Source: Chloroflexota bacterium
GTDB lineage: Bacteria > Chloroflexota > Limnocylindria > Limnocylindrales > CSP1-4
Reading direction: 5' to 3'
NCBI GenBank assembly: GCA_005883615.1
Contig: VBEC01000024.1
Span: 1,130 to 65,129, forward strand
DNA length: 64,000 nt
Shown here in pieces: positions 5,706 through 34,345 of the stretch (within the stretch, counting starts at the first letter, position 1; the number at the start of each line of letters is the position of its first letter). The position numbers and the translations under genes are program-made. The notes beneath the pieces were generated by a model. That model saw only the letters and a list, made by a program, of their open reading frames with translations. It searched no databases and was not told where the DNA came from.

Positions 5706-6530
5706 ATGACGGACGATCCAGCTGCGCGCTCGCTTTCGATCGTGCTGCCGGCGTTCAACGAAGCCGCCCGACTTGAGCCTGCGCTCGACGAGCTGTTCGG
5801 CTACCTTCGGCGCAGAGATGGCCGCGGACGCGCCGGCCTGCCGGGCCCAGCCAGCCTGCCCGCCGCCATCGAGATCCTGGTCGTCGACGACGGAAGCACG
5901 GACCGAACCGCGGAGCTCGTTCGCGCCCGATCTGAGTTCGGCGTTCACGAGGGTGCGCCGCTACTCAGCTTGCTGTCAGTCGCGCACGTCGGCAAGGGAG
6001 CCGCCGTCCGGGCAGGGATGCTCGCGGCCACCGGGGATCTGATCGTGTTTGCCGACGCGGACATGGCAACGCCCCCCGACCAGATCCCGCTGCTCGTGCA
6101 GGCGCTTGCCAACCACGACCTCGCGCTCGGGAGCCGGATCCAGCCGGACGGGTCGGACATGCGCCGCTCCCAGCCGGGTTACCGGCGGGTCCTCGGCCGC
6201 ATCTTCCATGGCCTTGCCTCGGCGTGGGCGGTAGGACCAGTCGAGGACACGCAGTGCGGTTTCAAGGGATTCACGCGCCCCGCCTCGCGCGACCTTTTCG
6301 CGCGCCAGGAGATCACGAGCATCGTCTTCGATGTCGAGCTCATCTACCTAGCCCGTCGCCGCGGATATCGGATCGCGATCGTCCCGATCCAGTGGAGCGA
6401 CCGGCGAGGATCGCGAATGCGAACGCGGCCGGGACTTGCCATCCGCGTACTGTGGGATCTTTTCCGGATCCCGCTGATTCACCGACGCGTGGGCCGGCTT
6501 GCGCCCGTCGACGAGCGGCCATCTCCCTAG
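5706..6530 (+). CDS. GT2, dolichyl/polyprenyl-phosphate glycosyltransferase family
   Basis: IVLPAFNE, VVDDGSTD, GKGAAVRAG, FADADMATP, DTQCGFK, FDVELI. Confidence 0.92.
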   Translation: MTDDPAARSLSIVLPAFNEAARLEPALDELFGYLRRRDGRGRAGLPGPASLPAAIEILVVDDGSTDRTAELVRARSEFGVHEGAPLLSLLSVAHVGKGAAVRAGMLAATGDLIVFADADMATPPDQIPLLVQALANHDLALGSRIQPDGSDMRRSQPGYRRVLGRIFHGLASAWAVGPVEDTQCGFKGFTRPASRDLFARQEITSIVFDVELIYLARRRGYRIAIVPIQWSDRRGSRMRTRPGLAIRVLWDLFRIPLIHRRVGRLAPVDERPSP

Positions 6531-6551
6531 TCTCGCGGGGAGCCGGCCGCT

Positions 6552-7493
6552 ATGCTCGCCCGACTCTGGTACTCACGGGGGATGCGCCGGGACGTGCCGA
6601 TCCTGTCTCATAAGCCGGTGACTCGATCTCGCGACGAGCTGATCGCTCGGTGGTCCGTGCTGGCCCTCATGGCGGTGGGTCTGGCCTACACCGCGGCCCT
6701 CGTGGCCGGCATTGCCCCGGACAACTTCGATGCCCACTCGTACTGGATGGCGGATCTGGCCGATCCGTACGCCAGGTCGCGGGTGGGCACGGACTACGCC
6801 TATCTCTATTCCCCCGCGTTTGCCCAGGCGATCGAGCCACTGCGCTGGCTGCCGTGGACGATCGCCGGGGCGATCTGGACGATCGGGTTGTTCGGCCTCC
6901 TCGGATGGACGGCCGGGCGACTGGGCCTCGTGCTGCTGCTGTTCCAGCCCGTCGTCGCATCGATTGCGCTCGGGAACGTCGAAATCCCGATCGCCGCGGC
7001 AATCGTCGCGGGTTTCCGTTGGCCGGCGGCGTGGTCGTTCGTCCTGCTCTCAAAGGTCACCCCGGGCATCGGCCTGCTCTGGTTTGCCGTGCGTCGCGAA
7101 TGGCGGTCACTCGCCATCGCACTGGGGGTGACCGCCGCGATCAGCGCCGCGTCATTCGTTCTCGCACCGCACCTCTGGTTCGACTGGTTCGACGTGCTCT
7201 TCAAGAATCGCGATGCGGCTGTTCGGCTTCCGGTCCTGCCCGGGCCCATCTGGTTGCGGGTCCTCATTGCCGCGGCGATCGTGATCTGGGGGGCTCGGAC
7301 AAATCGCCGTTGGGCCGTTCCCGTCGCCGCCGGCATTGCGATGCCGGTTGGCTGGTTCACGTTCACGGTCGTCATCGTCGTGGGAATCGCCGGGCTCCTT
7401 GTACGCGACCCGGAGTGGACCGTGCGCGGGACGATCTTGCGGATCACCTCCTGGATGAGGCGCGGACGGCTGCCCCAGGCGGAAACGACATGA
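6552..7493 (+). CDS. GT87-like (DUF2029) GT-C glycosyltransferase
   Basis: NFDAHSYW, YLYSPAF, LGNVE, LSKVTPGIGLLWF; multi-TM. Start could be 6582. Confidence 0.8.
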   Translation: MLARLWYSRGMRRDVPILSHKPVTRSRDELIARWSVLALMAVGLAYTAALVAGIAPDNFDAHSYWMADLADPYARSRVGTDYAYLYSPAFAQAIEPLRWLPWTIAGAIWTIGLFGLLGWTAGRLGLVLLLFQPVVASIALGNVEIPIAAAIVAGFRWPAAWSFVLLSKVTPGIGLLWFAVRREWRSLAIALGVTAAISAASFVLAPHLWFDWFDVLFKNRDAAVRLPVLPGPIWLRVLIAAAIVIWGARTNRRWAVPVAAGIAMPVGWFTFTVVIVVGIAGLLVRDPEWTVRGTILRITSWMRRGRLPQAETT

Positions 7494-8692
7494 GTGCGCG
7501 CATCCGGCCCGATACGGCACCCCGCGGCGGTTTCCCTTTGATGGGGGGTCGCGCCGCGCGGGTAGGTGCTGCAGCGCGCATCCGAGGAGTCGGGGTGGCG
7601 CTTGCGATCGACCGCCCCCTCGTCACCGCCTTTGTCCTGTCGCGGCTCGTAGTGCTGCTGGCCGCCGTCGCGGCCGAATACCTCCTCGCCCGCAACCCGC
7701 TGCTTACCAGCGGCGACGCTGCTCCACTGCTCAGGAGCCTCACCAGCTGGGACGGGATGTACTACCTCGGCATCGCCCGCGACGGCTACCATGCCGCGGC
7801 CGTCTCGGGCGCCTACCACGACTACGCGTTCGCACCCCTCTACCCGATGCTCGTCCGGGTGCTGTCCGCCCCGTGGCCAGGATTCGCGGGCCTTGTTGCG
7901 GTGGTCGTGTCGAACGTAGCATTCCTGGCCGCGCTCGGCCTCCTCGTTCGCCTGGGCGAGCCCTACCTGGGCCGCCGTCGCGCCCGCCTTGCCGCCATGA
8001 TCCTGGCCTTCTTTCCGTTCGCCGCAGTCTTCTCCATGGCGTACACGGAGAGCCTGTTCCTCGCGCTATCGCTGGCAGCCTTCCTTGCCGCGGAGCGCGG
8101 TAGCCGCGGCTGGGCAGGAGTCTTCCTGGCGCTGGCAACGCTCGCCAGGCTGCAGGGCGTGGTCCTCTTCGTCCCGCTCGGTCTGCTGATACTCGCGAGA
8201 GACGGCTGGCGCCCACACCTCTCGTTAGCGTGGCTGGCCCTGGGTCCCATTGCGGCCGCAGGCTTCCTTGCCTACGCCAATGGCGTGGCGGGCTCCTCGA
8301 CGGCGTTCCTCGATGCCCAGACGGCCTGGGGGCGCGCCGGCATCGGTGGTGCGGCCGAGGCCAGCGGCAGCCTCGCCGCCGGGTTCAACTCGCCCCTCGC
8401 CGTGTACCAGGGCAGCCTATTGCTGACGCTTTGCGGGGCGCTGTTCCTGCTCGTCTACGTACGGCCCGACCGCATCCCCCTGGCGTATGCCCTGGTCCCC
8501 GTCTTGTACATCGGGGCGGAGCTCTCGAGCGGACTGCTCGAGGCCGTTGGCCGAATCACGATGCTCGCTTTCCCCTATGCCTGGATTCTCGCTCGGCGCA
8601 GCAGCGGGTTCCGGCGCTCCTGGAGCCTGCTGTCGGTCGCGCTCCTGGCTCTCGTATCCGCCCTTTATTTCGCCGGCTTCTACGTGCCGTGA
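7490..8692 (+). CDS. GT-C mannosyltransferase, PIG-V/GT76-like
   Basis: SWDGMYYLGIARDGY, AFAPLYP, FSMAYTESLF, ATLARLQG. ATGA overlap with the upstream stop. Confidence 0.85.
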   Translation: MSARIRPDTAPRGGFPLMGGRAARVGAAARIRGVGVALAIDRPLVTAFVLSRLVVLLAAVAAEYLLARNPLLTSGDAAPLLRSLTSWDGMYYLGIARDGYHAAAVSGAYHDYAFAPLYPMLVRVLSAPWPGFAGLVAVVVSNVAFLAALGLLVRLGEPYLGRRRARLAAMILAFFPFAAVFSMAYTESLFLALSLAAFLAAERGSRGWAGVFLALATLARLQGVVLFVPLGLLILARDGWRPHLSLAWLALGPIAAAGFLAYANGVAGSSTAFLDAQTAWGRAGIGGAAEASGSLAAGFNSPLAVYQGSLLLTLCGALFLLVYVRPDRIPLAYALVPVLYIGAELSSGLLEAVGRITMLAFPYAWILARRSSGFRRSWSLLSVALLALVSALYFAGFYVP

Positions 8693-10809
8693 GGGGATCG
8701 ACCGAGCAGGCCCGGCTGCTGTTGCAGCCGGTGCCCTGGCTGGCATCGCCTGCTGCCCGCCTGTTCCTTACCAGCGGAACGCTGCTCTTCGTCGAGCTGC
8801 TGCTCATCCGCTGGATTCCGGCCAACGTGATCTACGTCGGCTTCTTCCGGAACTTCCTGTTGATGGCGAGCTTCCTGGGCATTGGTGTCGGGATCCTGTG
8901 GGGTCGCGATCAGCGCCGAATCGCGATCTCGCCCTTCGGACCACTGCTGCTGGCGGTCGCGGTTCTCGTCACGCAGGTCCAGTTGGGGATCCAGCTGCGC
9001 TCGCCCGACGAGATCTTCTTTGGCCTCGCCGAGAACACCCGGGCGGACGTCAACTTCCTGGTTTTGCCCGTTCTGGTGGTGCTGGCGACCGTGATCATGG
9101 CCGGCCTGGCGATCCCGCTGGGCTCCCTCCTGACGTCCATGCCTCCGCTGCGCGCATATGCCATCGACATCGTTGGCTCGATGACCGGAGTCGCCGCGTT
9201 CACCGGTCTGTCCGCAGCCGGCACGTCGCCCTCCACGTGGTTCGCGGTCGTCGCGGTCCTGGTCGGGCTGCTCGGGCTCGGCACCGGCATCCGCCGGTCG
9301 TCCGTGATCACGGCGTTTACCGTCGGCGGCGCCCTTGCTGTCGTAACCCTTGCTGCCAAGCCAGCGCGAACCTGGTCGCCCTACTACCGAATCGACGTCT
9401 ACGACTCCGGCGGCATCTCCGAGGTGGACGTAAATGGGATTCCGCACCAGGCGATGTGGCCGATCGATCGGATCTCGGACCCGTTCTATGAGCAGATCTA
9501 TCGCTGGTTCCCGGATCGGCATTACGCCCAGGTCCTCGTCGTCGGCGCCGGGACAGGAACCGACGTGGCACTCGCACTCGCCCACGGCGCCGGCCATGTC
9601 GACGCGGTCGAGATCGACCCGCGGATCCAGGAAATCGGGGTCCAGCAGCACCCAAATCGGCCGTACGACGACCCGCGGGTCACTCGCTACGTCGACGACG
9701 GCCGGGCGTTTCTCCACAAGACGAGCACGAAGTACGACCTGGTGATCTTCGCCTTGCCGGACTCGTTGACCCTGGTCAGCACGTCGGCCAACCTGCGGCT
9801 CGAGTCGTTCCTGTTCACGCGCGAAGCGTTCAGCGAGGTCCGCAGTCACCTCGGATCCGACGGGACGTTCGTGCTCTACAACTTCTACCGCCAGGAGTGG
9901 CTGCCGCAGAAGATCGCCCGCATGCTCGACGAGAGCTTCGGATCGCCCCCGATCGTGCGGACGTATTCGGACCAGACGTCGGCGACACTAGCGGCCGGTC
10001 CGGCAATCGCCGCCCTTGGGGGCAAGCCGCCGCCTGGCGACGCGATCGACCGGATCGATCTTGCCTCGGCCCCGGCGCCGGCGACGGATGACTGGCCATT
10101 CCTCTACCTCCGGGAGCCATTTATCGCGCCGTACTACCTCGCCGCGCTGGCCATCATCCTCGTCTTCGCCGTGCTGCTCGTCAGTCGGGCCGCGGTGCGA
10201 AGCGGGACATCGTTGCGCCGCTTCAGCCCCCACTTCTTCTTCCTTGGCGTTGCCTTCTTGCTGCTGGAGACCCGCAGCCTGGTGTCGTTCAGCCTGCTCT
10301 TCGGAACCACGTGGCTCGTGAACTCACTCGTGTTCTTCGCGATCCTGGCCAGCGTTCTGGGGGCGATCGCCATCAATGCGCGATTCCCGATCCGCGATCC
10401 GAGGCCCCTCTACGCGGCGTTGTTCGCCTCGATCGCGGTCAGCTTCGTGCTCTCGCCGACGGCTCTCCTGGTTGACCCGCCCGAGGTGCGCTACGTCCTG
10501 GCGGCCGGGCTGACGTTCGCCCCGGTTTTCTTCGCGAACCTGGTCTTCAGCCATTCCTTCCGCGACACGAAGACGGCCGATATGGCGTTCGCCTCGAACC
10601 TCCTCGGGGCGATGGTCGGCGGTGCGGTCGAATACCTGGCCTTGATCACCGGCTATCAGGCCTTGTTGCTGGTGGTGGCGGCACTCTACGGCTGTGCTTT
10701 TGTCCTGTCCCGCCGAGTGCACTGGCTGGCGGACCGAGAGCTCATGCCCAACGAGCTGGGCCTACCGGAGACCGGCACGAACAAGCCCGGCCTGGCGGTA
10801 GGCCCATGA
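8689..10809 (+). CDS. Membrane-fused spermidine-synthase-like SAM-binding protein
   Basis: N- and C-terminal TM blocks around VLVVGAGTGTDV...DAVEIDP...DDGRAFL...YDLVIF. GTG start overlaps the upstream TGA. Confidence 0.8.
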   Translation: MRGSTEQARLLLQPVPWLASPAARLFLTSGTLLFVELLLIRWIPANVIYVGFFRNFLLMASFLGIGVGILWGRDQRRIAISPFGPLLLAVAVLVTQVQLGIQLRSPDEIFFGLAENTRADVNFLVLPVLVVLATVIMAGLAIPLGSLLTSMPPLRAYAIDIVGSMTGVAAFTGLSAAGTSPSTWFAVVAVLVGLLGLGTGIRRSSVITAFTVGGALAVVTLAAKPARTWSPYYRIDVYDSGGISEVDVNGIPHQAMWPIDRISDPFYEQIYRWFPDRHYAQVLVVGAGTGTDVALALAHGAGHVDAVEIDPRIQEIGVQQHPNRPYDDPRVTRYVDDGRAFLHKTSTKYDLVIFALPDSLTLVSTSANLRLESFLFTREAFSEVRSHLGSDGTFVLYNFYRQEWLPQKIARMLDESFGSPPIVRTYSDQTSATLAAGPAIAALGGKPPPGDAIDRIDLASAPAPATDDWPFLYLREPFIAPYYLAALAIILVFAVLLVSRAAVRSGTSLRRFSPHFFFLGVAFLLLETRSLVSFSLLFGTTWLVNSLVFFAILASVLGAIAINARFPIRDPRPLYAALFASIAVSFVLSPTALLVDPPEVRYVLAAGLTFAPVFFANLVFSHSFRDTKTADMAFASNLLGAMVGGAVEYLALITGYQALLLVVAALYGCAFVLSRRVHWLADRELMPNELGLPETGTNKPGLAVGP

Positions 10810-11888
10810 ACGATCTGGGGCTATTGCGGTTCGGGACGACGCCGCAGCTGAGCAGGAACGCAATGGCCCGCGGGGTCGGGAACAGGCTCCGTTCGTTGGG
10901 CGCGCCTGGGAACCGCGCCCGGCTACGTGATGTGTCGATGGCCGGCACAGTCATGGTTGGCTTCGTCATCGGTCTCGCGCAGGCCCTGGGGCGCGCCGAG
11001 GCTGGAACGGACAACATCCTTTACTGGCACGACACGGGAAATGGGCTTGCGTACCCGGCGCAGTGGATGATCTCGTCGAGCTGGTGGGTCTACCCACCGC
11101 CGCTGGGGCAATCCCTCGAGTTCATCCATCCCATCGGCTTCCCGGCCTATCTCGTCGCTTCGAGCGTTCTCCTGTTCGCGGCCCTGGCCTACGTGGCGAG
11201 AGGCTGGTCTCTGCCGCTCGTCGGCCTCGGTTTCCTCGGGATCGCGTTCCCGTCACCGCCCACCCTGATCCTTGCACAGCCGTTTGGCTGGGCGCTCCTG
11301 GGCAACGTGCAACTGCTCATGGCTGCAGCGATCGTGGCCGGCATGCGTTGGCCAGCCGCGTGGGCCGTCCCCCTGTTGACCAAGATCGGTCCCGGCGTCG
11401 GGCTGTTGTGGTTTGCGGTCCGGCACGAATGGCGCAACCTGTCCATCGCGCTCGCAGCAACGCTCGCGATCTCGGCCGCGTCCTTCCTCCTCTCGCCGTC
11501 GGACTGGGCCAACTGGCTGCGTTTTGTGGCGAGCAACCTGAACTCGCCCATGGACTCGAAGGTCGTGGCGACCATCGCGATTCCGACGGTCCCCATCCCG
11601 TTCATCGTCCGAGCTGCGATGAGCGCCGGCCTTGTCGTCTGGGGTGCTCGTACGAATCGCATCTGGACGGTTCCCGTCGCGGCGGGCTGGGCAATCCCGG
11701 CCCTCTACATGTGGTCATTCCTGCCGATCTGGCTGGGCGTGATCGGCGTGCGAGCGACCCCGGCAGCTCACTCCTCCAGGGCGGCTGCGATCGGTGACCA
11801 GGGTGGAAACCGGGTTGTGCCCGGCCTCGACGGGCCCCAGGAAACCAGGCTTCGAGACGCACTGAGCGCTCCAGCCGAAGGCGAATGA
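10806..11888 (+). CDS. GT87-like GT-C glycosyltransferase
   Basis: GTDNILYW, VYPPP, LGNVQ, LTKIGPGVGLLWF; clear paralog of 6552 and 15315. Confidence 0.8.
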   Translation: MNDLGLLRFGTTPQLSRNAMARGVGNRLRSLGAPGNRARLRDVSMAGTVMVGFVIGLAQALGRAEAGTDNILYWHDTGNGLAYPAQWMISSSWWVYPPPLGQSLEFIHPIGFPAYLVASSVLLFAALAYVARGWSLPLVGLGFLGIAFPSPPTLILAQPFGWALLGNVQLLMAAAIVAGMRWPAAWAVPLLTKIGPGVGLLWFAVRHEWRNLSIALAATLAISAASFLLSPSDWANWLRFVASNLNSPMDSKVVATIAIPTVPIPFIVRAAMSAGLVVWGARTNRIWTVPVAAGWAIPALYMWSFLPIWLGVIGVRATPAAHSSRAAAIGDQGGNRVVPGLDGPQETRLRDALSAPAEGE

Positions 11889-14230
11889 GGCCCCCTCTTC
11901 ACGCCCCGACGCCTGTTCCGACGTCGAGCCGTCTCGTGCTGGCAATCTTCTTGCTCTCGGGTGCCGCGGGGCTCATCTATGAGGTGGTGTGGGCCCGGCA
12001 ACTGGTTCTCGTGTTCGGCAATACCACTCAGGCTGTCTCCGCGATTCTCACCGGCTTCTTCGGCGGAATGGCTATTGGCAGCGCCTTTGGCGGGCGTCTG
12101 GCCGATCGGGTCAGGCGCCCACTACGGCTGTATGGCGCGATCGAGCTCGTCCTGGTTGTCATCGTGTTGATCACGCCGATCACGTTTCGGCTGCTCCACG
12201 AGGTCTACCGGGCTGCCTTTGGGACGCTGGAGGCAACCCCGCTTGCCCTGGCACTCGTCCGGTTCGGGCTGGCGCTGCTGGCACTCGCCCCGGCGACGGT
12301 CCTGATGGGCGCCACACTGCCCACGTTGACCCGCTACCTGACTCGAGGTGCTGCCGATCTGACCGCTGCATTCGGGAAGCTGTATGCGGCGAACACGATT
12401 GGCGCAATCGTCGGAACTGCGCTGTCGGGGTTCGTCCTCATCGAGATCCTGGGCCTGTCGGGCACCCTCGCTTTTGGGGCTGCCTGCTCGGGCGCGGCAG
12501 GTCTCCTGGCCCTCGGTCTCGATCGACGATCCGTGGCGCTCACCGCCCGGGAATCGGGTCTCGTCCGACTCTCCGAGAACACCGCGAGCCCAGATCCGCC
12601 GGCCTCGCCAGAGCTGGACATGGGCACACGGACCTCGCGTTTCAGGCTTGCCCTGGCGATTGCATTCGTGTCGGGCCTGACGTCGCTCGCCTACCAGGTT
12701 CTATGGATGCGACTGGTCGCGTCCGGCACCGGCAACCTGACCTACATCTTCACGATGATCCTCGCCACGTTCCTCACCGGGATCGCGCTCGGGGCGATGG
12801 CTTTCAACATCATCCGCCAGCGGATAACGCAGACGGTCGCCGTCCTCGCAGTCACCCAGGTCGCCACGGCCATCCTTGTGCTCGGCGGAATGGTGGTCCT
12901 CGACGCGCACTTCGGTGAGTCCGGCTCGTTTGCGGCGTTTCTGCAGAAGACGATCCTGGTCGTGCTGCCAACCACATTCGTCATCGGGATCAGCTTCCCT
13001 GCATCGGCCGCGCTTCTCGCTGGACCCGCCCACCAGAGCGGTAGTCGCTCCGGTCTCCTCCTCGCTGTGAACACGATCGGCGCCATCGTCGGAACCTTCG
13101 TAGTCCCGTTCCTGGTAATCCCTGCCGTCGGATCAGCAACCGCCCTTGGACTGGTGGCGCTCGCGAATGCGGCAACGGGTGTTGCCCTGGCGCTGGCCGG
13201 TGGCGTCGAGAGCCGACTCTGGAGAACGAGCACCGCCACCGCGGGCGCAGCGCTGCTGGTTGTCGTGAGCGTGGCGCTCCTGAGCGGAAGTCTCTTCGTG
13301 GATCCGAGCATCAGCCGCATCAAGAGCGTCGGCGGGACGATATTCCGCTCGGCTGAAGATGAGATCGCCTCGGTTCAGGCAGGCAGCCTTGGCGGGTCGA
13401 AGCAACTGTGGGTGACGGGTACCTCCATGACTGCCCTGACGGTCGACGCGCGGCTGATGTTGGTCCTGCCCCTGATGCTTCGGCCGGCGGCCACCAGCAA
13501 TCTGACCATCGCCTTCGGGATGGGCTCGGCATACCGCGAGTCGATACGGGCCGGCCTGAATACGGACGCCGTGGATATCGTCCCGTCCGTTCCGTTGATG
13601 TTCGGACAGTTCTACCCGGACGCCGCGGCCATCCTTGCTCGGCCACAAGGCCATGTGATCATTGCCGACGGTCGAAACCACGTCGAGCTGACCGCTCGGA
13701 CCTACGACATGGTGGTGGTCGATCCTCCCCCGCCGATCCAGAGTTCGGGGGTTTCCGTCATTTCGTCACACGAGTTCTACCAGGCCACGAAGGCGCGCCT
13801 GACGCCCGGGGGCGTGATGATGCAATGGGTGCCGTTCGGTCAAACGATCGATGAGTTCAAGGCCCACGTCCGGACATTCCGCGACGTGTTCCCGAACGTG
13901 ATCGTAGCCAACGGGCCGGGCGGGAATGGGTTCTTCATGCTCGGGTCGGATGCCGCCATCGGCTTCGATCCGGTGGCGATCCGCGCCGTCCTCTCACGGC
14001 CTGGGATCGTCGATGACCTCTCGAGTGCCTATGACTCGCCCAAGCACGCGCAGGATGACTGGGCGGCGCTCATTCCCACCCTCGTGCGGCTCGAAGGCAG
14101 CCAGGTGGCCGCTTTCGCGGGCCCGGGCCCACTGATCACGGACGATCGCCCGTTGCCCGAGTACTTCGTTCTACGGCAGCGCTTTGGCCCGCCATCGCCG
14201 GCGCTAACGCTCGAGGAGGTGGCGCCGTAA
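11885..14230 (+). CDS. Fused MFS-like membrane domain / spermidine-synthase-like protein
   Basis: LSGAAGLIYEVVWARQL, LYAANTIGAIVG, SLAYQVLWMR repeats; C-terminal AFGMGS, DGRNH, YDMVVVDPPPP. Confidence 0.85.
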   Translation: MRPPLHAPTPVPTSSRLVLAIFLLSGAAGLIYEVVWARQLVLVFGNTTQAVSAILTGFFGGMAIGSAFGGRLADRVRRPLRLYGAIELVLVVIVLITPITFRLLHEVYRAAFGTLEATPLALALVRFGLALLALAPATVLMGATLPTLTRYLTRGAADLTAAFGKLYAANTIGAIVGTALSGFVLIEILGLSGTLAFGAACSGAAGLLALGLDRRSVALTARESGLVRLSENTASPDPPASPELDMGTRTSRFRLALAIAFVSGLTSLAYQVLWMRLVASGTGNLTYIFTMILATFLTGIALGAMAFNIIRQRITQTVAVLAVTQVATAILVLGGMVVLDAHFGESGSFAAFLQKTILVVLPTTFVIGISFPASAALLAGPAHQSGSRSGLLLAVNTIGAIVGTFVVPFLVIPAVGSATALGLVALANAATGVALALAGGVESRLWRTSTATAGAALLVVVSVALLSGSLFVDPSISRIKSVGGTIFRSAEDEIASVQAGSLGGSKQLWVTGTSMTALTVDARLMLVLPLMLRPAATSNLTIAFGMGSAYRESIRAGLNTDAVDIVPSVPLMFGQFYPDAAAILARPQGHVIIADGRNHVELTARTYDMVVVDPPPPIQSSGVSVISSHEFYQATKARLTPGGVMMQWVPFGQTIDEFKAHVRTFRDVFPNVIVANGPGGNGFFMLGSDAAIGFDPVAIRAVLSRPGIVDDLSSAYDSPKHAQDDWAALIPTLVRLEGSQVAAFAGPGPLITDDRPLPEYFVLRQRFGPPSPALTLEEVAP

Positions 14231-15305: not shown

Positions 15306-15314
15306 CGGAGGGTC

Positions 15315-16364: not shown

Positions 16365-16582
16365 TCGACTTTGCCCAGGCGTTCGTGCACGGAGGGTCGT
16401 TCAACCGCACGTCCGCGCGATTCGCCTGGCCCCTGCCTGGTTCTGAAGTACTAGGCAGAAAGTAGCATCGGCAACGTGCATTGACCATAGTTCCTGAGAT
16501 GTCCGTTGCCATCGGACACCGCCGCTCGCCAGGCAGTTGAGCGCGCAACGACCTGATCTGACCCCGATGCTATTCTCGGACA

Positions 16583-17797: not shown

Positions 17798-17799
17798 GA

Positions 17800-18994: not shown

Positions 18995-19025
18995 ACCGGC
19001 GCGGCCGCCGGGCGGGCCGCCCAGA

Positions 19026-22564: not shown

Positions 22565-22635
22565 GCGCCTCGATCATACTGGCGGGCTTCGGCGGAGCGC
22601 GGGCCGTGGGAGCGGCCTTGACCGAGGTTGAGAGC

Positions 22636-23496: not shown

Positions 23497-23526
23497 GCCC
23501 GAGGTCCTTTGATAGAGTCCGCTGGC

Positions 23527-24729: not shown

Positions 24730-24761
24730 TCGGAGTCCGGGCCGGCGACCATGGAACGGCC

Positions 24762-27453: not shown

Positions 27454-28704
27454 CCACTCGAGCGAGTCGCTTTCGGCGGGCCCGTGAGTGAGCTGCCAGA
27501 CGCTCCCAAGGGTAACGGCGAGGACTGTCAGGGCGCCGAGAACCGACAGGAGCCCGTTCTGCGGTAGTAGCTGTGCGATACCCGCTGTCGCCGGGACGGC
27601 CGACATGAGGTTGGCAGTGAAGGCCAAGCCGAAAACGAGCCATAGCGCGCGAAGCCGGACCTCGGGGAGGAGAAGCGCGAGGAAGACAAGGGCCGCAAAC
27701 GCATAGCGTTCGTGCATCGTCGTCAGGAGCGAGAAGGCAACCAGCGCCGACGCTGCAATTCCAAGCACGAGGTTCCGGAAGGTCGGCCGCTGGTAGACGG
27801 CGATGAAGACGACGGCTTCGGCCAGCCCGGTCATGACGAAGGCCAGAGAGCGCACCGACACGGGGCCCAGCAGGGCCCCGCTATCCGACAGGAAATTTCC
27901 GCCGGCGGCCTGCTGGAGCAGCCACCAGACGTTCCAGGCGCGCAGGGAGAGCACGCCGAACACCTCGTTTTGATAGTGGTTCAGGTTGCGCGCGTAGCCG
28001 GCGACACCGCCGTCGGCAAGAAAGGGAACCCACAGGACGGCGGCCGTTCCGGCCGTGACTGCGGCCAATCGGATCGCACCACCAAGTCCAAAACGCGCCA
28101 CCGCCCAGGCGGCGAACGGGACGAAGAAGGGCAGGGCCTGCGGTTTCGTCATGACGGCGACTCCGAGGGCGACCGCCGCCAGGTTGGGGTGTCGGCCTCC
28201 GGCGAGCAGGACGGCGACGAGCCCCGCCAGCACGTAGATCGATTCGAACTGTCCCCACCATGCGCTGACGTAGATGAGCGCGGGATGCAGCGCAATCGCG
28301 AGGCCCGCGACGATCGCCCAGCGAAGCCGGTCGCGGAGGGCGAAAGCGACACCCAGCGCGAGCGCGAGGTCGGCGACACTGGCGGGCAGCTTCACGACGG
28401 CCCGCACCAGCGGATCGCCGGCGTCGACGGCGTGGCCGGCGAGGCCCAGGATCCCGCCCATCAGCGCGAACAGATAGGCCATCACGGGTGGGAAGCTGAG
28501 GTCCAGACGATAGGCCTGGCCGAACGGGGCACGGCCGATGTCGCGGACCCAGCCAACGAATTGGTCGAGATCGTCTCTGAAGCCATCCGTCGGCAGCAGA
28601 ATCAGCCGGATGAGGATGGCTGCCGCGAGGCCGGCAACGACGACGGGCCCGGCCCACGTGGGGCGCCGGGCCGAGAAGGTCGCGCGGGCGCGAACGGGCA
28701 CCAT
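27385..28704 (-). CDS. GT-C glycosyltransferase (ALG6/PIG-M-like bacterial homolog)
   Basis: DDLDQFVGW, SFPPVMAY, VKLP, SAWWGQFES, TKPQ, TMHERY; TAATG coupling at 28704. Confidence 0.78.
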   Translation of the reverse strand: MVPVRARATFSARRPTWAGPVVVAGLAAAILIRLILLPTDGFRDDLDQFVGWVRDIGRAPFGQAYRLDLSFPPVMAYLFALMGGILGLAGHAVDAGDPLVRAVVKLPASVADLALALGVAFALRDRLRWAIVAGLAIALHPALIYVSAWWGQFESIYVLAGLVAVLLAGGRHPNLAAVALGVAVMTKPQALPFFVPFAAWAVARFGLGGAIRLAAVTAGTAAVLWVPFLADGGVAGYARNLNHYQNEVFGVLSLRAWNVWWLLQQAAGGNFLSDSGALLGPVSVRSLAFVMTGLAEAVVFIAVYQRPTFRNLVLGIAASALVAFSLLTTMHERYAFAALVFLALLLPEVRLRALWLVFGLAFTANLMSAVPATAGIAQLLPQNGLLSVLGALTVLAVTLGSVWQLTHGPAESDSLEWSDGEHPPQPASEGNPIPAQVVR

Positions 28705-29498
28705 TATCGACCCGCCTCCGGGAGCGGGCCTTCCATATGCGGCGAACCCCCTCTGCGGACGCCCCGTGCAGTCGTTCTGCCAGCCCACGCTGCGACCGGG
28801 ACCAGGAGCACCGGAACGTTCTCGAGCGAATAGAGAATGCCGGCATTGGAACCGTGCCCGTTGGTCAGTGAGCGAACCCAGTCAAGGGTCATCGGCAACA
28901 TGAGCACACCAACCAGAAGGAGCGAGATCGCGACTGTCCACCACCGCCAATCGCGGACGCCGACAAGCGCGAACGGGAGAAGCGTTGGCTTGACGAGGAT
29001 CAGTGCACTGACCCACGAATACCGGAGCGCGACGGCAAATACGGCGACGAGCCAAATAGTTGGCGTGCCGTACACGTAGATCATGAACGACCAGGGGAAG
29101 AAGGCGACAAGCGCGAGGATCGAGGCCACGGCCCACATGGCAGGCCGAAACGAAAAGAGCATCCATCCAGTGATCGCGATCGGAATTGCGTACCAGGCGA
29201 CTGCGGGCAGAAGGCTGAATGGCACGAACAAGGCAAGCATCTGGGGCGGATAGAGAACCGCCCCGGCCTCCAGGTCGTAAGGCCCGGCCAGTTGTTGCGG
29301 TGGATAGAACGATCCGCCGGCCAGCCACCGGTGGGTGGCATCCATGTAGAGCTTGTAGTCGAAGCCCGTGTGATGCCACAGGTCAGCGTTCGTGGCCAAT
29401 TGGCTCGCTTCAAGGACAATCAACAGAACGAGGCACCCGCAAACTGCCAGAAGCCCATCCTGCACGAGGCGGCTTCGCAACTGTTGAGCCTGGATCAT
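28704..29498 (-). CDS. GT87-like GT-C glycosyltransferase (short)
   Basis: GFDYKLYM, VLYPPQ, YGTPT, LVKPTL. Start at ATG 29498 has TAAGCT 7 nt upstream. Confidence 0.7.
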   Translation of the reverse strand: MIQAQQLRSRLVQDGLLAVCGCLVLLIVLEASQLATNADLWHHTGFDYKLYMDATHRWLAGGSFYPPQQLAGPYDLEAGAVLYPPQMLALFVPFSLLPAVAWYAIPIAITGWMLFSFRPAMWAVASILALVAFFPWSFMIYVYGTPTIWLVAVFAVALRYSWVSALILVKPTLLPFALVGVRDWRWWTVAISLLLVGVLMLPMTLDWVRSLTNGHGSNAGILYSLENVPVLLVPVAAWAGRTTARGVRRGGSPHMEGPLPEAGR

Positions 29499-29650
29499 CG
29501 CGGGAAGCTTAGTATCCGAGGCCCGGCCCATCGACCACCCATTCGGGGGATTGGAGCGGCCGGCGCGCCCATGGACGATCGGGTGGGCCCAGGCCGTCGC
29601 CTGCTGTCCCCGCTTGACTCCCTGCAGGCCTTGGGAAGAAACGAGCCCTG

Positions 29651-30409
29651 GTGATTTTGAAAGAAGACGCGCGCGGCATTCTCGCCGACCGGACCGCAGA
29701 GCCACTTGTCGCAGTCGTGATCCCTGCTCTAAACGAGGAGGGCAAGATTGGCCGCGTGCTGGACAAGTTCCCGCGGGACGGCCGATTCGAGGCGATCGTC
29801 GTCGATGACGGTTCCACGGACGGAACCGGTGAGGAGGCGCGCGAGCATGGCGCAGCCCTGGTCATCCGCCACGATGCTCGACAGGGCGTCGGAGGGGCGA
29901 TACGCGACGGTTGGGAGGCCGGCCTTGCCCGCAACCGGCCCTATCTGGCATTGCTGTCGGGTGACGACCAGCACGAACCGTCCGAGCTCGTCGGCGCTTT
30001 CGATCGGTTGCTCGCGACGGGCGCCGACTATGTCCAGGGCTCACGCTGGCGCAAAGGTGGGCGAGTCGAGGGCCCTTCGAGCGGCCGTGCGCTGGGGACC
30101 CGCTTCTACTCGGCGGTCTTCAGCGTGCTGACGCTGCGGCTCGTCACGGACGCCACCAATGGCTTCCGCATATTCCGCTCCGAGATCCTGGGGGACCCCG
30201 CGATCAACATCCGCCAGCCGTGGCTGGACAGCTACGACCTGGAGCCCTACGTGTTGTACAAGGCGATCCAGCGCGGCTACAAGGTCATCGAGCATCCCTG
30301 CACGGTCGTCTACCATGCCCGCGGCGGGTATACCAAGATGCGCGGACTGCGTGACTGGTGGCGCCTGTTCCGACCGGCATTGCTGCTGCGAACGGGGGTC
30401 AAGAGATGA
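29651..30409 (+). CDS. GT2, DPM1-like polyprenyl-phosphate glycosyltransferase (paralog A)
   Basis: VVIPALNE, VVDDGSTD, SGDDQH, QGSRW, DATNGFR. Confidence 0.88.
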   Translation: MILKEDARGILADRTAEPLVAVVIPALNEEGKIGRVLDKFPRDGRFEAIVVDDGSTDGTGEEAREHGAALVIRHDARQGVGGAIRDGWEAGLARNRPYLALLSGDDQHEPSELVGAFDRLLATGADYVQGSRWRKGGRVEGPSSGRALGTRFYSAVFSVLTLRLVTDATNGFRIFRSEILGDPAINIRQPWLDSYDLEPYVLYKAIQRGYKVIEHPCTVVYHARGGYTKMRGLRDWWRLFRPALLLRTGVKR

Positions 30410-31407
30410 ACGGGGTCTTCGAGCAGGCTTTTCGCGGTCGGCGCGTCCTCGTCACAGGCGGTGCGGGCTTCGTCGGGGGAGCGGTAGCTCAACGCCTCGT
30501 TGAGCTCGGCGCTCAGGTCACAGTTCTGGACGACCTCTTTACGGGCCTGCCCGAAACCGTTCCCAATGGCGCACGGTTCGTTCAGGGCTCGGTCACCGAT
30601 CAGGCCCTGATCAACGACCTCGTGGCCGAGAACGCGCTCGTGTTCCACCTGGCAGCGCGCAACATCATCGCCTCAACAAAGAACCCCCGCGACGACTTCG
30701 AGACGAACATCGGCGGGACGCTGAACGTGCTGATGGCGGCTCGCGAAACGAAGGTCGACCGGATCGTCTACTCGTCGTCGACGTCGATCTACGGGAACCC
30801 TCGCTCGATCCCGATCAACGAAGACGACCTGCTCATTCCGCTCACGCCGTATGCCGTGAGCAAGCTCGGGGGGGAGCACTACTGCTTCGCCTTCTACGAG
30901 AGCTACGGGCTGCCCATCGGGTGCGTCCGCTATTCGAACATCTACGGTCCGGGCCAGCGGCCCGACAACCCGTACTGCGGGGTCGTCTCGAAGTTCCTGG
31001 CCATGACCGACGACGGTGCCCCGATATCCATCCACGGGGACGGCGAACAGACACGAGACTTCACGTTCATCGATGACGCGGTCGATGCGACGCTGCTGAC
31101 CGCGATCCATCCGCGGGCCGAAGGCGAGGTCTTCAACGTCGGCACGGGCATTGAAACCTCCGTCAACCAGCTCGCGCGGATGATCGGTCGGGCTCTCGAC
31201 ATCCCGGTCACTCTGGAGCACATCGACCGGCGCGACGTCGACAACATCCGACGACGCGTCGTGAACATCGAAAAGGCGCGCCGGATGCTTCGCTGGGCCC
31301 CTCAGATCACTCTGGAGCAGGGCCTCGCGCGGACGGCAATCTGGTTCCGGGAGACCGGATTCGCGGCTGAGCGGGACGCTCCGGCCACAGGGGCCGCGAC
31401 GCACTGA
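30406..31407 (+). CDS. NAD-dependent epimerase (UDP-hexose 4-epimerase-like SDR)
   Basis: VTGGAGFVG, YSSSTSIYG, PYAVSK, RYSNIYGPGQ, QTRDFTFIDD. Confidence 0.92.
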   Translation: MNGVFEQAFRGRRVLVTGGAGFVGGAVAQRLVELGAQVTVLDDLFTGLPETVPNGARFVQGSVTDQALINDLVAENALVFHLAARNIIASTKNPRDDFETNIGGTLNVLMAARETKVDRIVYSSSTSIYGNPRSIPINEDDLLIPLTPYAVSKLGGEHYCFAFYESYGLPIGCVRYSNIYGPGQRPDNPYCGVVSKFLAMTDDGAPISIHGDGEQTRDFTFIDDAVDATLLTAIHPRAEGEVFNVGTGIETSVNQLARMIGRALDIPVTLEHIDRRDVDNIRRRVVNIEKARRMLRWAPQITLEQGLARTAIWFRETGFAAERDAPATGAATH

Positions 31408-31577
31408 TCGCGTCGGTCCAGGCCCATTGCACGAGCTCCACCTTTGGATGCGACCGTCCTCCCAGAGGGTACTAACGGAGTGTTGCCAGTTGGCATCGCC
31501 TTCACGAACATAGCCTCCGAGCGTGGCGATTCTGAGAGATTCATGTCCACGCCTGCTAACGCGAGAGCTCGAGTGAA

Positions 31578-32576
31578 TTGAGATACCTGATCACGGGCGG
31601 TGCCGGCTTCATCGGGTCGCATGTTGCTGACCGCCTCGTCGGGCGCGGCGATACCGTCAGCCTTCTCGACGATCTCTCCACCGGGAGCACGGCCAACATC
31701 CAACATCTTCTGTCGGGTCCCTCGTCCGCCGCGGTCCGATTCACCGAAGGGTCGGTGCTGGACCACAGCCTCGTGAGCCAGCTCACACGCGAGGTCGATG
31801 TGATCGTCCACCTTGCCGCGACGGTGGGCGTCGAGCTGGTCGTCAAGAAGCCACTTGAAACCCTGCTCAACAATGTCCGGGGAACCGAGATCGTGCTCGA
31901 TGTCGCCGTTCAAAGGGGGACCAAGGTCCTCGTGACCTCGACATCCGAGATCTACGGAAAGAACGCCGCCGGCGCCCTGCACGAGGAATCAGACCGAATC
32001 CTTGGTTCGCTCCTCAAGGCGCGCTGGGCCTACGCGACCTCAAAGGAGGTCGATGAAATCTTCGCGTTCGAGTACTGGCGGCAGCGGAAATTACCGACCG
32101 TCGTGGCCCGCCTGTTCAACTGCGTCGGCCCCCGCCAGACAGGCGCGTACGGCATGGTTGTGCCGCGCTTTGTCCGGCAGGCCCTGACCGGGGAGGATCT
32201 CACCGTTTTCGGTGACGGGACGCAATCGCGCTGCTTCTGCCATGTCATGGATGCGGTCGGCGGTCTCGTGGCGCTCCTGGACTGCGACGAGGCGATCGGC
32301 GATGTGTTCAACGTCGGGTCGCAGAACGAGATCAGCGTCCGATCGCTCGCCGAGTTGCTGATTGAGATGACGGCCTCCTCGTCATCCATTCGCTACGTGC
32401 CATACAGCGAGGCCTACGAGCCGGGCTTCGAGGACATGGAGAGACGGCTGCCTGACATTTCCAAGATCACGGGGCTGACCGGCTGGGTTCCTCGGCAGGG
32501 GCTGAAGGAAATCCTGGAGGATGTCATCGAATACGAGCGCCGCCCCCTGGCAGGGGCAGAGGCCGCTGATGTTTGA
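31578..32576 (+). CDS. NAD-dependent SDR, UDP-glucuronate decarboxylase/ArnA-C-like
   Basis: ITGGAGFIGSH, TSTSEIYGK, RWAYATSK, RLFNCVGPRQ, QSRCFCHV. Confidence 0.85.
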   Translation: MRYLITGGAGFIGSHVADRLVGRGDTVSLLDDLSTGSTANIQHLLSGPSSAAVRFTEGSVLDHSLVSQLTREVDVIVHLAATVGVELVVKKPLETLLNNVRGTEIVLDVAVQRGTKVLVTSTSEIYGKNAAGALHEESDRILGSLLKARWAYATSKEVDEIFAFEYWRQRKLPTVVARLFNCVGPRQTGAYGMVVPRFVRQALTGEDLTVFGDGTQSRCFCHVMDAVGGLVALLDCDEAIGDVFNVGSQNEISVRSLAELLIEMTASSSSIRYVPYSEAYEPGFEDMERRLPDISKITGLTGWVPRQGLKEILEDVIEYERRPLAGAEAADV

Positions 32577-33297
32577 AGACCTCAGCGAGGCGCCGCTGGT
32601 TGCGGTTGTGATTCCCGCGCTCAACGAGGCGGGCAAGGTTGGACGAGTGCTCGATGGGATACCTCGTGATGGCCGGTTCGAGGCCATCGTCGTGGATGAC
32701 GGTTCGACGGACCAGACTTCAGATGAGGCACGAGCTCATGGAGCGGCCGTGGTGCTGCGCCACGACCTGAGAGCTGGCAAAGGAGTCGCGATTCGGGACG
32801 GATGGGAGGAAGGTATCCGGCGTGGCCGGCCATATCTGGCGATCATCGATGCCGACGACCAGCACGATGCGGCGGATCTTGCGAGCGCCCTGGACGACCT
32901 CCTCGCCAGGGATGCTGACTACCTCCAGGGCTCACGTTGGATGCGTGGCGGGCGAGTCGTGGGGCCTGCCGGCGGGCGGGGTTTCGGGACCCGCGTGTAT
33001 TCGTTGGCCTTCAGCATCCTTGCGATGCGCCGCGTAAGCGACGCGACCAATGGCTTCCGGATCTTAAAGGCCTCGATCCTGAAGGACCCGGCAATCGATC
33101 TCCATCAATCCTGGCTCACAAGCTACGACCTCGAGCCGTACGTCCTCTACAAAGCGATCCGTCTCGGTTATCGCGTTGTCGAGCACCCCGTAACTGTCCG
33201 CTACCACGGCGATGGCTACACCAAGATGCAGGGGGTTCGGGACTGGTGGCGGCTGTTTCGGCCCGCCCTCCTTCTACGGACCGGCCTCAAGCACTGA
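32569..33297 (+). CDS. GT2, DPM1-like polyprenyl-phosphate glycosyltransferase (paralog B)
   Basis: Colinear with 29651 gene; DADDQH motif. Confidence 0.88.
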   Translation: MFEDLSEAPLVAVVIPALNEAGKVGRVLDGIPRDGRFEAIVVDDGSTDQTSDEARAHGAAVVLRHDLRAGKGVAIRDGWEEGIRRGRPYLAIIDADDQHDAADLASALDDLLARDADYLQGSRWMRGGRVVGPAGGRGFGTRVYSLAFSILAMRRVSDATNGFRILKASILKDPAIDLHQSWLTSYDLEPYVLYKAIRLGYRVVEHPVTVRYHGDGYTKMQGVRDWWRLFRPALLLRTGLKH

Positions 33298-33343
33298 CCA
33301 AACGATCCGCCTGAGGCGCGTCCGGGTCTTCGGATCGTCCGGT

Positions 33344-34345
33344 CTAGGTCGGCGGTCGCGCCGGCGCGCGTGTTGGCGCGTTGGAGGTCCGGGCAAACGG
33401 GATCGCGATCGTCACCAGCAGACTGATCTGCTCGAAGTACACGACAGGCGACACGATGACCGAGGCTGCCGCCGCGACGGCGAACGACGCGGCTGGTCTT
33501 TGCCGCAACAGCCAGATCAGGGCAAGGCAGACCACGCCCACAACCGGAGTTACCAGCGGCACGAGATCATGAGGCAGGCCCCAGCTCCCGGCAATTCCAG
33601 CGAGGCTGAGTCGCGATACGCCAGTCGTGCTCGTCTGCTGCGCTATGGACAGGAACTCGACATGGCTGTCCCAGCCCGCCCCAATCACGCTCACCGCGAG
33701 AATTGCGATGCCCGAGGGGATTGACCAACCGACCGCGGCCGTCCGCCTCCGGACCAGGAGCCACCAGCCAAAGACGCCCTGTGTGAGCTTGATTGCGGTT
33801 ACGGCCGCGACGGCAACTCCAGCTATTTGTGGCCGATCGTTGCGGTCCGCCCACCAGATCAGGCCGTAGACCGGGAACAGGAACGCGCCCACGTTTCCGG
33901 CAACGCACAACAGCGCGACAGCAGGACTGAGCAGGATCAGGAGCCACAACCCCGACGCTCTCGATCGCCGGACGAGCCATGCGACGGTGATCACACTGAC
34001 AACCGCTGCGGCTATCCACCACGCGTACATCGCGACGTCGCCCAGGGCGGCGAGCGGCCGCCATAGAACGGCAATCGGGGGCGGATTGAGGAGGGGCACC
34101 GTCCAGTACGGGGGATTAGGTGGTCCCATGCGATCGCCGGGTTGGATGGCGTAAAGATCGTGGCCGGCGTTGAGCCTTTGGCCCGCGGCGTAGTAGTTGG
34201 AAACGTCGCCTCCGATCCTGGTCGGATCGAAGAACTCCGGAAAGAAGACCGCGACGATGCCGACCATCGCGAGCAGGAAAAGCACGGCAGCCGCCCGCAG
34301 GAGCCGCTCGGGTCCGAGCCTGACTACGACCCGAACACCGGGCAT
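33344..34345 (-). CDS. GT87-like GT-C glycosyltransferase
   Basis: GGDVSNYY, RLNAGHDLY, NPPPIAVLWRPLA, AGNVG, AIKL. Confidence 0.8.
   Translation of the reverse strand: MPGVRVVVRLGPERLLRAAAVLFLLAMVGIVAVFFPEFFDPTRIGGDVSNYYAAGQRLNAGHDLYAIQPGDRMGPPNPPYWTVPLLNPPPIAVLWRPLAALGDVAMYAWWIAAAVVSVITVAWLVRRSRASGLWLLILLSPAVALLCVAGNVGAFLFPVYGLIWWADRNDRPQIAGVAVAAVTAIKLTQGVFGWWLLVRRRTAAVGWSIPSGIAILAVSVIGAGWDSHVEFLSIAQQTSTTGVSRLSLAGIAGSWGLPHDLVPLVTPVVGVVCLALIWLLRQRPAASFAVAAAASVIVSPVVYFEQISLLVTIAIPFARTSNAPTRAPARPPT

Follow-up and report, generated by a model that had tools for sequence, protein, structure and literature searches.

Sugar transfer from lipid-linked donors outside the cytoplasmic membrane is known in depth mainly from the lipoglycans of actinobacteria, which serve as drug targets and immune modulators. 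In mycobacteria and corynebacteria, phosphatidylinositol mannosides (PIM), lipomannan (LM) and lipoarabinomannan (LAM) stem from a pathway with PgsA1, PatA, the GT4 enzymes PimA/PimB', the GT2 enzyme Ppm1 and the GT87 enzymes PimE/MptA/MptB/MptC. A related division of labor is found in the three-component periplasmic systems (GtrA/GtrB/GtrC; ArnC/ArnE-F/ArnT; PpgS/Rv3779; RgtE with RgtA-D; CsbB/GtcA/YfhO), in which a family 2 glycosyltransferase (GT2) makes a polyprenyl-phosphate (polyprenyl-P) sugar and a glycosyltransferase of the GT-C superfamily transfers it outside the membrane. In eukaryotes, the asparagine-linked glycosylation (ALG) and glycosylphosphatidylinositol (GPI) pathways rely on DPM1, ALG3/6/8/9/12, PIG-A, PIG-L, PIG-M, PIG-V and STT3. 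The combination of a lipid-P-sugar synthase with GT-C enzymes that act outside the membrane has clear precedents in the PIM/LM/LAM, Gtr and Arn systems. Here, we describe a locus at positions 5706-34345 of a 64,000-nucleotide stretch of DNA, the window, from the genome of an uncultured soil bacterium of the Chloroflexota, order Limnocylindrales (3.06 Mb, 94% complete, ~67% G+C; contig C68:1130-65129, where C68 is VBEC01000024.1). The locus combines twelve GT-C genes, nine of them GT87-like, with five GT2 genes. With a probability of about 0.7, we interpret it as an assembly line for a surface glycoconjugate that varies from lineage to lineage and would operate mostly at the outer surface of the cytoplasmic membrane.

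Coding frames in the window were chosen by the G+C content of third codon positions (GC3) and then checked by homology. The locus contains 27 genes, one of which, encoding a family 4 glycosyltransferase (GT4), lies in two frames. The genes are tightly packed and operon-like: intergenic gaps are at most 218 nt, and a number of genes start within the stop codon of the one before (ATGA at 7490, GTGA at 8689, among others). Alternation of the coding strand gives at least eight transcription units. The presence within 29 kb of nine GT87-like genes, three other GT-C genes and five genes for lipid-P-sugar synthases had been proposed in an annotation made from the sequence alone (hereafter, the first-pass annotation). 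This inventory is borne out by Pfam and NCBIfam matches and by AlphaFold2 models compared using Foldseek, the five predicted synthases being GT2 proteins that resemble dolichyl-phosphate mannose synthase (DPMS). At the genome-wide density of ~16 GT87-like genes per 3.06 Mb, a stretch of 28.6 kb should hold 0.15 of them; it holds nine (Poisson P ~1e-13). The same annotation had placed the locus outside the actinobacteria, in agreement with the homologs, which carry the name Candidatus Limnocylindrales at NCBI.

Membership in GT87 was defined by Pfam family PF09594 (gathering cut-off of 25 bits). This cut-off is passed by seven of the nine GT87-like proteins, which are referred to as A to I (Table 1), and support from hidden Markov models (HMMs) for the GT87/GT-C assignment is present. 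Protein B, which scores below the cut-off, is assigned by its 43% identity to protein A (blastp), and protein H, which has no match, by its paralogs and motifs: blastp links it to G (E 1e-6) and F (E 6.5e-6), and it belongs to a supported clade with relatives. A profile of the nine proteins retrieves the structure of PimE (PDB ID: 9dm5, E 2.8e-8). All nine open reading frames (ORFs) are intact, with GC3 values of 0.73-0.85. The proteins are short (275-393 aa, as compared with 415 aa for the PimE chain in 9dm5), and hydropathy suggests ~6-10 hydrophobic segments in each. Judged by their sequences, the locus supplies nine naturally minimised PimE-like proteins. The two subfamilies recognized in the first-pass annotation, A/B/D and E/I, are recovered both by blastp and in a maximum-likelihood tree, the paralog phylogeny for which that annotation had called. 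In this tree, B and D are sisters (support 100/99) within the A clade, which points to a duplication within the lineage. A 718-aa ORF at 24572-26728, considered as a candidate GT87-epimerase fusion, was rejected because the first 378 residues are spurious, Arg/Gly/Pro-rich sequence read out of frame; the GT87-like gene occupies 24762-25706 in a different frame, and the epimerase gene 25706-26728.

In PimE, D58 is the catalytic base, and Y62, Y92, Q163 and K195 are each needed for activity (PMC12041525). The D..YPP..GN..K pattern that the first-pass annotation had noticed in the nine sequences coincides with these experimentally required positions (D58/Y62, Y92, Q163 and K195). When 62 GT87-like proteins, drawn from this genome and from eight relatives, were aligned to a common HMM, the position of the catalytic Asp was present in 59, and 57 of these have the Asp. 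The two exceptions, protein G and the ortholog that a second species of the genus encodes, both have His for Asp, Gly for Y92 and His for the Asn of the GN motif; a more distant member of the G clade retains Asp. Protein G may be a pseudo-enzyme or may follow an altered chemistry. Within the window, the D58 position is Asp in eight of nine copies (His in G), the Y62 position is Tyr in eight (Asn in C) and the Y92 position is Tyr in six (Ser/Asn in the E/I clade, Gly in G). The Q163 position is Asn in seven copies (His in G, Thr in H), and the K195 position is Lys in eight (Arg in F). The His of protein G, the failure of B and H to reach the Pfam cut-off and a frameshift in the core GT4 gene would be expected if most GT87 copies were decaying or non-catalytic and their expansion of little biochemical meaning. 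This explanation is extremely improbable: the nine ORFs are intact with high GC3, Asp is kept in 8/9 copies and Lys or Arg in 9/9, and even the Asp-to-His variant is retained in the second species of the genus. Moreover, the remaining substitutions are clade-specific and shared with orthologs in other genera (in the E/I clade, Y92 is replaced by Ser or Asn, with Ser common to its orthologs; in the F clade, K195 is replaced by Arg), which argues for purifying selection rather than decay. The pseudogene reading was rejected on this conservation of residues across orthologs. Contrary to what would have refuted the first-pass annotation, catalytic residues are kept in most copies, and eight of the nine look catalytically competent.

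Table 1 Genes of the locus and its flanks. Positions are those of the window unless a contig is named; bit scores are from Pfam unless stated, G numbers label relative genomes, and core marks genes of the conserved core.
Feature	Position	Strand	Evidence
DegT-type aminotransferase	C68:1-1130, outside the window		Adjoins the PglF-like gene
PglF/CapD-like membrane UDP-sugar 4,6-dehydratase	3-1676	-	Polysacc_synt_2 289 bits; runs off window start
Small PglC/WbaP-type phosphoglycosyl transferase	1713-2354	-	Bac_transf 150 bits; type that primes polyprenyl-PP-sugar
SAM-dependent methyltransferase	2361-3107	-	Methyltransf_11/25
Cytoplasmic-type GT2, 341 aa	3104-4129	-	Glycos_transf_2 82.8 bits; NCBIfam best MftF, EpsD
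Wzx/MOP-type flippase	4130-5758	-	Polysacc_synt 37 bits; Polysacc_synt_3
DPMS-like GT2 no. 1	5706-6530	+	Core; 70-74% identity in four other genera
GT87-like A	6552-7493	+	313 aa; PF09594 52.5 bits; all PimE-type residues (D, Y, Y, GN, K); ortholog in G022, 57% identity
PIG-V/PMT_2-like GT-C	7490-8692	+	Mannosyl_trans2 (PIG-V) 43 bits, PMT_2 28 bits; ATG overlaps stop of preceding gene; 58-66% identity in G012, G022
Spermidine-synthase-like polytopic membrane protein	8689-10809	+	Spermine_synth 37 bits, central domain; 57-67% identity in G011, G022
GT87-like B	10806-11888	+	360 aa; PF09594 20.2 bits (below cut-off); motifs complete
MFS-like/spermidine-synthase-like fused membrane protein	11885-14230	+	Core; NF037959 94.9 bits (cut-off 40); 53-68% identity in four genera
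GT87-like C	14136-15305	-	389 aa; PF09594 39.6 bits; Asn at PimE Y62 position
GT87-like D	15315-16364	-	349 aa; PF09594 28.6 bits
FemAB-like/GNAT transferase (Acetyltransf_6)	16583-17797	+	Core; 115 bits; 60-64% identity in five genera
GT4 glycosyltransferase	17740-18994	+	Core; Pfam; two frames here; 77-80% identity in relatives
GT87-like E	19026-19958	-	310 aa; PF09594 74.1 bits; E/I clade
STT3/DPY19/PglB/ArnT/AftA-like GT-C	20072-21526	+	AlphaFold2 pLDDT 89.8; C-terminal soluble domain
GT87-like F	21383-22564	-	393 aa; PF09594 53.2 bits; Arg at K195 equivalent
DPMS-like GT2 no. 2	22606-23496	+	60% identity in G022, there also beside F-type GT87
Nucleotide-sugar 6-dehydrogenase (UDP-Glc/UDP-ManNAc)	23509-24729	+	TIGR03026 266 bits, above cut-off; Pfam
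GT87-like G	24762-25706	+	314 aa; PF09594 26.0 bits; His at catalytic Asp position
SDR epimerase/dehydratase no. 1	25706-26728	+	Epimerase 138 bits
DPMS-like GT2 no. 3	26692-27453	+	GT2 family/motif comparison
ALG6/PimE/PIG-M-like GT-C	27385-28704	-	AlphaFold2 pLDDT 85.9; Foldseek ALG6 6snh, TM 0.66
GT87-like H	28704-29531	-	275 aa; no Pfam match; D, Y, Y, P, K kept; GT for GN
DPMS-like GT2 no. 4	29651-30409	+	80% identity in G009; PDB DPMS 5mlz E 2e-11
SDR epimerase/dehydratase no. 2	30358-31407	+	72-73% identity in G009, G022
SDR enzyme no. 3	31578-32576	+	Nearest families UDP-xylose synthase, ArnA decarboxylase domain, LegB
DPMS-like GT2 no. 5	32521-33297	+	GT2 family/motif comparison
GT87-like I	33344-34345	-	333 aa; PF09594 68.9 bits; E/I clade
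PIG-L/LmbE-family de-N-acetylase	34399-35616	-	Core; PIG-L 58.5 bits; 65-69% identity in G009, G022, G023

The five small GT2 proteins, which would provide the donors, measure 252-296 aa in the present delimitation, match PF00535 at 60-79 bits and show 28-32% identity to the first of them, encoded at 5706. All share DDGSTD, DxD, GSR and Asp-x4-Phe motifs, with D119 at the acidic DxD-type position. For four of the five, the top NCBIfam matches include dolichyl-P-hexose transferase, AglJ, PpgS and ArnC, which rank lower for the protein encoded at 22606; none of these matches comes near its equivalog cut-off. Among solved structures, that of the archaeal DPMS from Pyrococcus is the best match to the protein encoded at 29651, the one GT2 compared with the PDB. 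These observations describe five putative polyprenyl-P-sugar synthases of the DPMS/Ppm1/PpgS type. Four of the five genes are neighbors of a nucleotide-sugar enzyme, either the 6-dehydrogenase or a member of the short-chain dehydrogenase/reductase (SDR) family (22606 with 23509, 26692 with 25706, 29651 with 30358 and 32521 with 31578), an arrangement that supports several distinct lipid-linked sugars. These probably include one derived from a uronic acid. NCBIfam allows no specific sugar to be assigned to any of the three SDRs or five GT2s.

The neighboring donor genes also recur together elsewhere. The dehydrogenase, epimerase no. 1 and GT2 no. 3 form a module that is present in the relative genome G007, and GT2 no. 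4, epimerase no. 2 and an E/I-type GT87 gene form one that is present in G009 and G022. In G007, an assembly of nine contigs, the first module (within G007:C9:1-20000) is read in several overlapping ORF pieces (1700-2842, 1864-2451, 2292-2711 and 2479-2883, for instance), which look like assembly frameshift errors. The recurrence of GT2, SDR and GT87 genes as small units that move independently between genera, together with the alternating gene directions and the minimum of eight transcription units, would suit a collection of independent synthase and GT-C modules, each adding one sugar to its own pre-existing target (for example, a wall polymer, a lipid or a protein) in the manner of Gtr, Arn or PpgS. 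Such modules have precedents in GtrABC, ArnC/ArnT, PpgS/Rv3779, RgtE/RgtA-D and CsbB/YfhO. We nevertheless regard this explanation as quite unlikely. The twelve GT-Cs face five synthases here, and eleven GT87 genes face two synthases in G009, so that many GT-Cs must share a donor, as in the elongation or branching of a polymer. In addition, a primer-type core (GT4, PIG-L and FemAB-like genes) travels with the locus in five genera, and GtrA-type flippases, which would be expected of Gtr-like modules, have no gene in the locus.

Of the three GT-C proteins outside GT87, the one encoded at 7490-8692 is recognized by Pfam (Table 1) and the other two by predicted fold. The protein encoded at 27385-28704 has no significant Pfam match itself, and its predicted structure matches, in addition to ALG6, those of PimE, PIG-M (GPI mannosyltransferase I) and ALG3 (Foldseek probability of 1.00). 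It has at least 854 homologs at E<=1e-5, the best listed being 50-60% identical; some of these have Alg6_Alg8 or GT87 Pfam matches, and some appear as 'Gpi18-like mannosyltransferase' at JGI and as Candidatus Limnocylindrales at NCBI. In the first outer loop of this family, D45 is invariant and D47 is present in at least 90% of members. The protein encoded at 20072-21526 has STT3 as its best Foldseek match (TM 0.60), followed by DPY19, PglB, ArnT and AftA, again with a probability of 1.00. No sequence-level match was found for it in the PDB, and no Pfam match in the 31 members of its family examined. Two Asp residues, D36 and D57, are invariant in the first outer loop. This is a large family: a search of 1.84 billion representatives gives 4,925 clusters at E<=1e-30, and members are present in 71 of 121 sampled Chloroflexota genomes. 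Comparison of coordinates shows a conserved neighborhood, since in no fewer than 14 of these genomes, which span several families, a member is encoded within ~3 kb of GT87.

The left flank of the locus bears on the role of this protein. It is occupied by a bacillosamine-type priming unit that is transcribed away from the GT87 locus. An ALG/oligosaccharyltransferase (OST)-like route would start there: a short glycan linked to polyprenyl diphosphate (polyprenyl-PP) would be built by the PglC-type transferase, GT2 and methyltransferase, with a bacillosamine-like first sugar supplied by the PglF- and DegT-like enzymes. Wzx would flip this glycan, the GT87, ALG6-like and PIG-V-like enzymes would extend it outside, and the protein encoded at 20072 would transfer it en bloc to protein or wall. 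The flank does contain Bac_transf, Polysacc_synt_2, DegT-type aminotransferase, GT2, methyltransferase and Wzx genes, and the route would be consistent with STT3, DPY19 and PglB as the best folds for the 20072 protein, with its invariant Asp residues and with its recurrent position beside GT87 genes. It is also compatible with the kinship described by Lombard (2016), in which DUF2029 and PMT are the closest prokaryotic relatives of the eukaryotic lumenal ALG/PIG enzymes (PMC4973528). Three observations make this route unlikely. First, the OST motif WWDxG is absent from the 20072 protein, in which the sole WW reads AWWAL with no Asp after it. Second, the single-sugar transferases ArnT and AftA fit its fold about equally well. 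Third, no synteny ties the left-flank block to the locus in G009, G022, G011, G012 and G023, and it may be a separate neighboring cluster. Because of this lack of synteny in the five other genera examined, the block is kept out of our interpretation of the locus as an outside-acting assembly line. Further along the window, strong coding signatures mark two large minus-strand ORFs of 513 and 675 aa (50349-51890 and 51728-53755), which match no Pfam family at E<=1e-4.

The likeness to eukaryotic pathways is not confined to the 20072 protein. Predicted folds correspond to ALG6, ALG3, PIG-M and STT3, Pfam matches include PIG-V and PIG-L, the GT2 proteins are soluble and DPM1-like, and the pairing of a GT4 with a de-N-acetylase is that of the first two steps of GPI synthesis. 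The resemblance is, however, one of fold and superfamily only (12-17% identity), and no ethanolamine-phosphate transferase or transamidase genes were seen here. It is very doubtful that the locus and its left flank together are a bacterial counterpart of the whole lumenal logic of the endoplasmic reticulum, with a flipped polyprenyl-PP primer (Wzx/Rft1-like), ALG/PIG-like GT-Cs that draw on several Dol-P-sugar-like donors, and en bloc transfer to protein or wall by an STT3-fold family that had gone unrecognized. If true, the Terrabacteria would provide a living model of the way in which eukaryotes organize N-glycan and GPI assembly on the lumenal side.

To place the locus in its lineage, six relative genomes were compared (G009, G022, G012, G011, G007 and G023); two genomes of the same genus (63% and 85% complete, 270-290 contigs) are too fragmented for whole-locus comparison. 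The same locus, with the same right-hand anchor of PIG-L, PCMT and DUF5317-MFS genes (MFS, major facilitator superfamily), is present in at least five other genera. Across these genera, core genes, with GT2 no. 4 and epimerase no. 2 counted among them, are 53-80% identical, whereas the GT87 genes are 30-57% identical and differ in number and order. The maximum-likelihood tree of GT87 contains at least eight supported clades that span genera. Together, these features describe birth-and-death evolution of GT87 genes around a fixed core, as in an O-antigen-type locus. The comparison of genome-wide counts with related taxa, as suggested in the first-pass annotation, gave a median of 8 GT87 genes in the 25 genomes of the same family (range 1-18) and of 3 in an even sample of 121 Chloroflexota, in which 94 genomes have GT87, the 95th percentile is 10 and three genomes reach 12. 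The present genome contains 12-13 by Pfam and 15-16 by iterated HMM, and genomes of the sister family (1.1 Mb) contain 0-1 each. GT87 is therefore ordinary across the Chloroflexota, and its expansion is a trait of the family, with this genome near the top of the range. Of the extreme GT-C expansion proposed in the first-pass annotation, the clustering stands (nine genes in 28.6 kb), but as a feature of this genome the expansion is overstated, given the family median and the eleven GT87 genes found in ~28 kb of G009. A pattern search of the genome contigs with GT87 protein E gave 53 pattern matches and no relative.

The conserved core bears on the acceptor of the glycan. The closest solved relatives of the core GT4, identified through an intact relative, are BshA, PimB', MshA and PimA, and no sequence-level solved relative of the FemAB-like protein was found in a PDB search. 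The combination of this GT4 with the PIG-L-type de-N-acetylase and the FemAB-like transferase suggests, from family membership, a glucosamine-based primer. In this genome, the GT4 gene is split by a deletion of ~30 nt (~10-11 residues) near 18310-18325, after '...MDQLIAV', relative to five intact relatives. The split was located by tblastn with the intact gene of G009 and by reading of the frames; intact orthologs include those of G009, G022, G011 and G023. Both spermidine-synthase-like membrane proteins, encoded at 8689-10809 and 11885-14230, count among the conserved core (53-68% identity across genera). The protein encoded at 8689-10809 has the nucleotide-binding motif GAGTGT in place of the GGG(D/E)G of spermidine synthases (aligned to PDB ID: 1uir). 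Loss of the acidic residue may favor S-adenosylmethionine (SAM) over decarboxylated SAM.

A lipid anchor for the acceptor was considered because the genome carries a PIM-type cassette elsewhere, on contig C2 (47.8-54.1 kb). The cassette encodes a phosphatidylinositol phosphate (PIP) synthase, inositol-3-phosphate synthase (Ino1), a pair of PatA-like acyltransferases, a GT4 and a PHP-family hydrolase. Relative to the equivalog cut-offs of NCBIfam, PIP synthase scores 150/170, Ino1 534/638 and the PatA-like proteins 123 and 135/209 bits. On the opposite strand after the cassette lies a 1,860-aa ORF with a Pfam GT87 match (C2:58894-59259; region C2:47800-59700). Within the order, 36 of 41 genomes contain PIP-synthase-like genes. 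On this gene content, a lipid anchor of the PIM/LM or GPI kind is plausible but tentative, and we would place it below even odds.

From the gene families, predicted folds, functional residues, synteny and genome counts described above, we infer donors, acceptor, topology and step order, and the assignment of all genes to one product, as follows. The nucleotide-sugar dehydrogenase and the three SDR epimerases/dehydratases would diversify nucleotide sugars in the cytoplasm, and the five soluble DPMS/Ppm1/PpgS-like GT2s would charge polyprenyl phosphate with different sugars. These lipid-linked sugars would then be flipped across the membrane, where the twelve GT-Cs would add them singly to a growing acceptor. 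In the GT87 enzymes, the Asp at the tip of the first outer loop would serve as the catalytic base and the Lys would hold the phosphate. The acceptor would be primed by the core GT4 (BshA/PimB'/MshA-like), the PIG-L-type de-N-acetylase and the FemAB-like transferase, giving the glucosamine-based primer, and may carry a lipid anchor like those of PIM, lipomannan or GPI. The glycan structure specific to each genus would be set by its variable complement of GT87 enzymes. The gene content thus fits the extracytoplasmic glycan from several lipid-linked sugars envisaged in the first-pass annotation; its 'highly branched' character and the choice between a lipoglycan and a protein glycan do not follow from the genes.

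Several observations weigh against this assembly line. A GtrA-type flippase (PF04138) is absent from the locus and the window, and the one match in the whole genome is on contig C99. The GT2, SDR and PIM-type genes all score below curated equivalog cut-offs. One GT87 copy, G, lacks the catalytic Asp, and the GT4 frameshift is either a broken pathway in the population or an assembly error in the metagenome-assembled genome. The PglC/PglF/DegT/Wzx block would fit a polyprenyl-PP-linked glycan instead. Finally, the sister family has PIP synthase yet only 0-1 GT87 genes, so that phosphatidylinositol synthesis alone is no argument for a phosphatidylinositol-based lipid acceptor.

Compared with the described systems, the locus is closest to PIM/LM/LAM synthesis in its GT87 proteins with PimE residues, its soluble Ppm1/DPMS-like GT2s, its GT4 from the neighborhood of PimB', PimA and MshA and the accompanying cassette of Ino1, PIP synthase, two PatA-like proteins and a GT4 in the same genome. 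It differs in belonging to the Chloroflexota rather than the Actinomycetota, in having five synthases with sugar-modifying partners where the actinobacterial pathway has one mannose donor, and in forming one hypervariable cluster where the actinobacterial genes are scattered. Further additions are the PIG-L deacetylase, the FemAB-like transferase and the MFS/spermidine-synthase-like proteins. With the three-component systems, it shares the logic of a GT2 that makes a polyprenyl-P-sugar for a GT-C acting outside, and its grouping of a dehydrogenase and an epimerase with a GT2 and a GT-C has parallels in the Arn route for 4-amino-4-deoxy-L-arabinose (L-Ara4N) and the galacturonic acid (GalA) route of Rhizobium. 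In contrast to these systems, the locus contains no GtrA- or ArnE/F-type flippase gene, its ratio of GT-Cs to synthases is 12:5, and its dedicated primer core points to the building of a glycan and not to decoration alone. A literature search on GT87, DUF2029, PIM and lipoglycans in Chloroflexota or Limnocylindria returned nothing relevant, in keeping with the remark in the first-pass annotation that no such polymer was known for this lineage, and no description of the Limnocylindria envelope was found in the literature searched. The density of GT-C genes (12 in 29 kb), the multiplicity of donors, the STT3-fold partner family without a Pfam model and the lineage itself are undescribed in that literature.

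Limnocylindria are abundant in soil and freshwater and, to our knowledge, have no cultured representatives. From the locus and its variants in related genera, these bacteria are predicted to devote considerable resources to a surface glycan for which several lipid-linked sugars would be assembled outside the membrane. The turnover of GT87 genes from genus to genus resembles O-antigen-type diversification and would point to pressure from phages or predators. For the enzyme families, the minimal PimE-like proteins may be useful in structure-function work, and a large STT3-fold GT-C family without a Pfam model is found to be genetically tied to GT87. Finally, the locus allows a test of the idea that glycolipid assembly of the PIM/LM or GPI kind may be older and more widespread in the Terrabacteria than the Actinomycetota.

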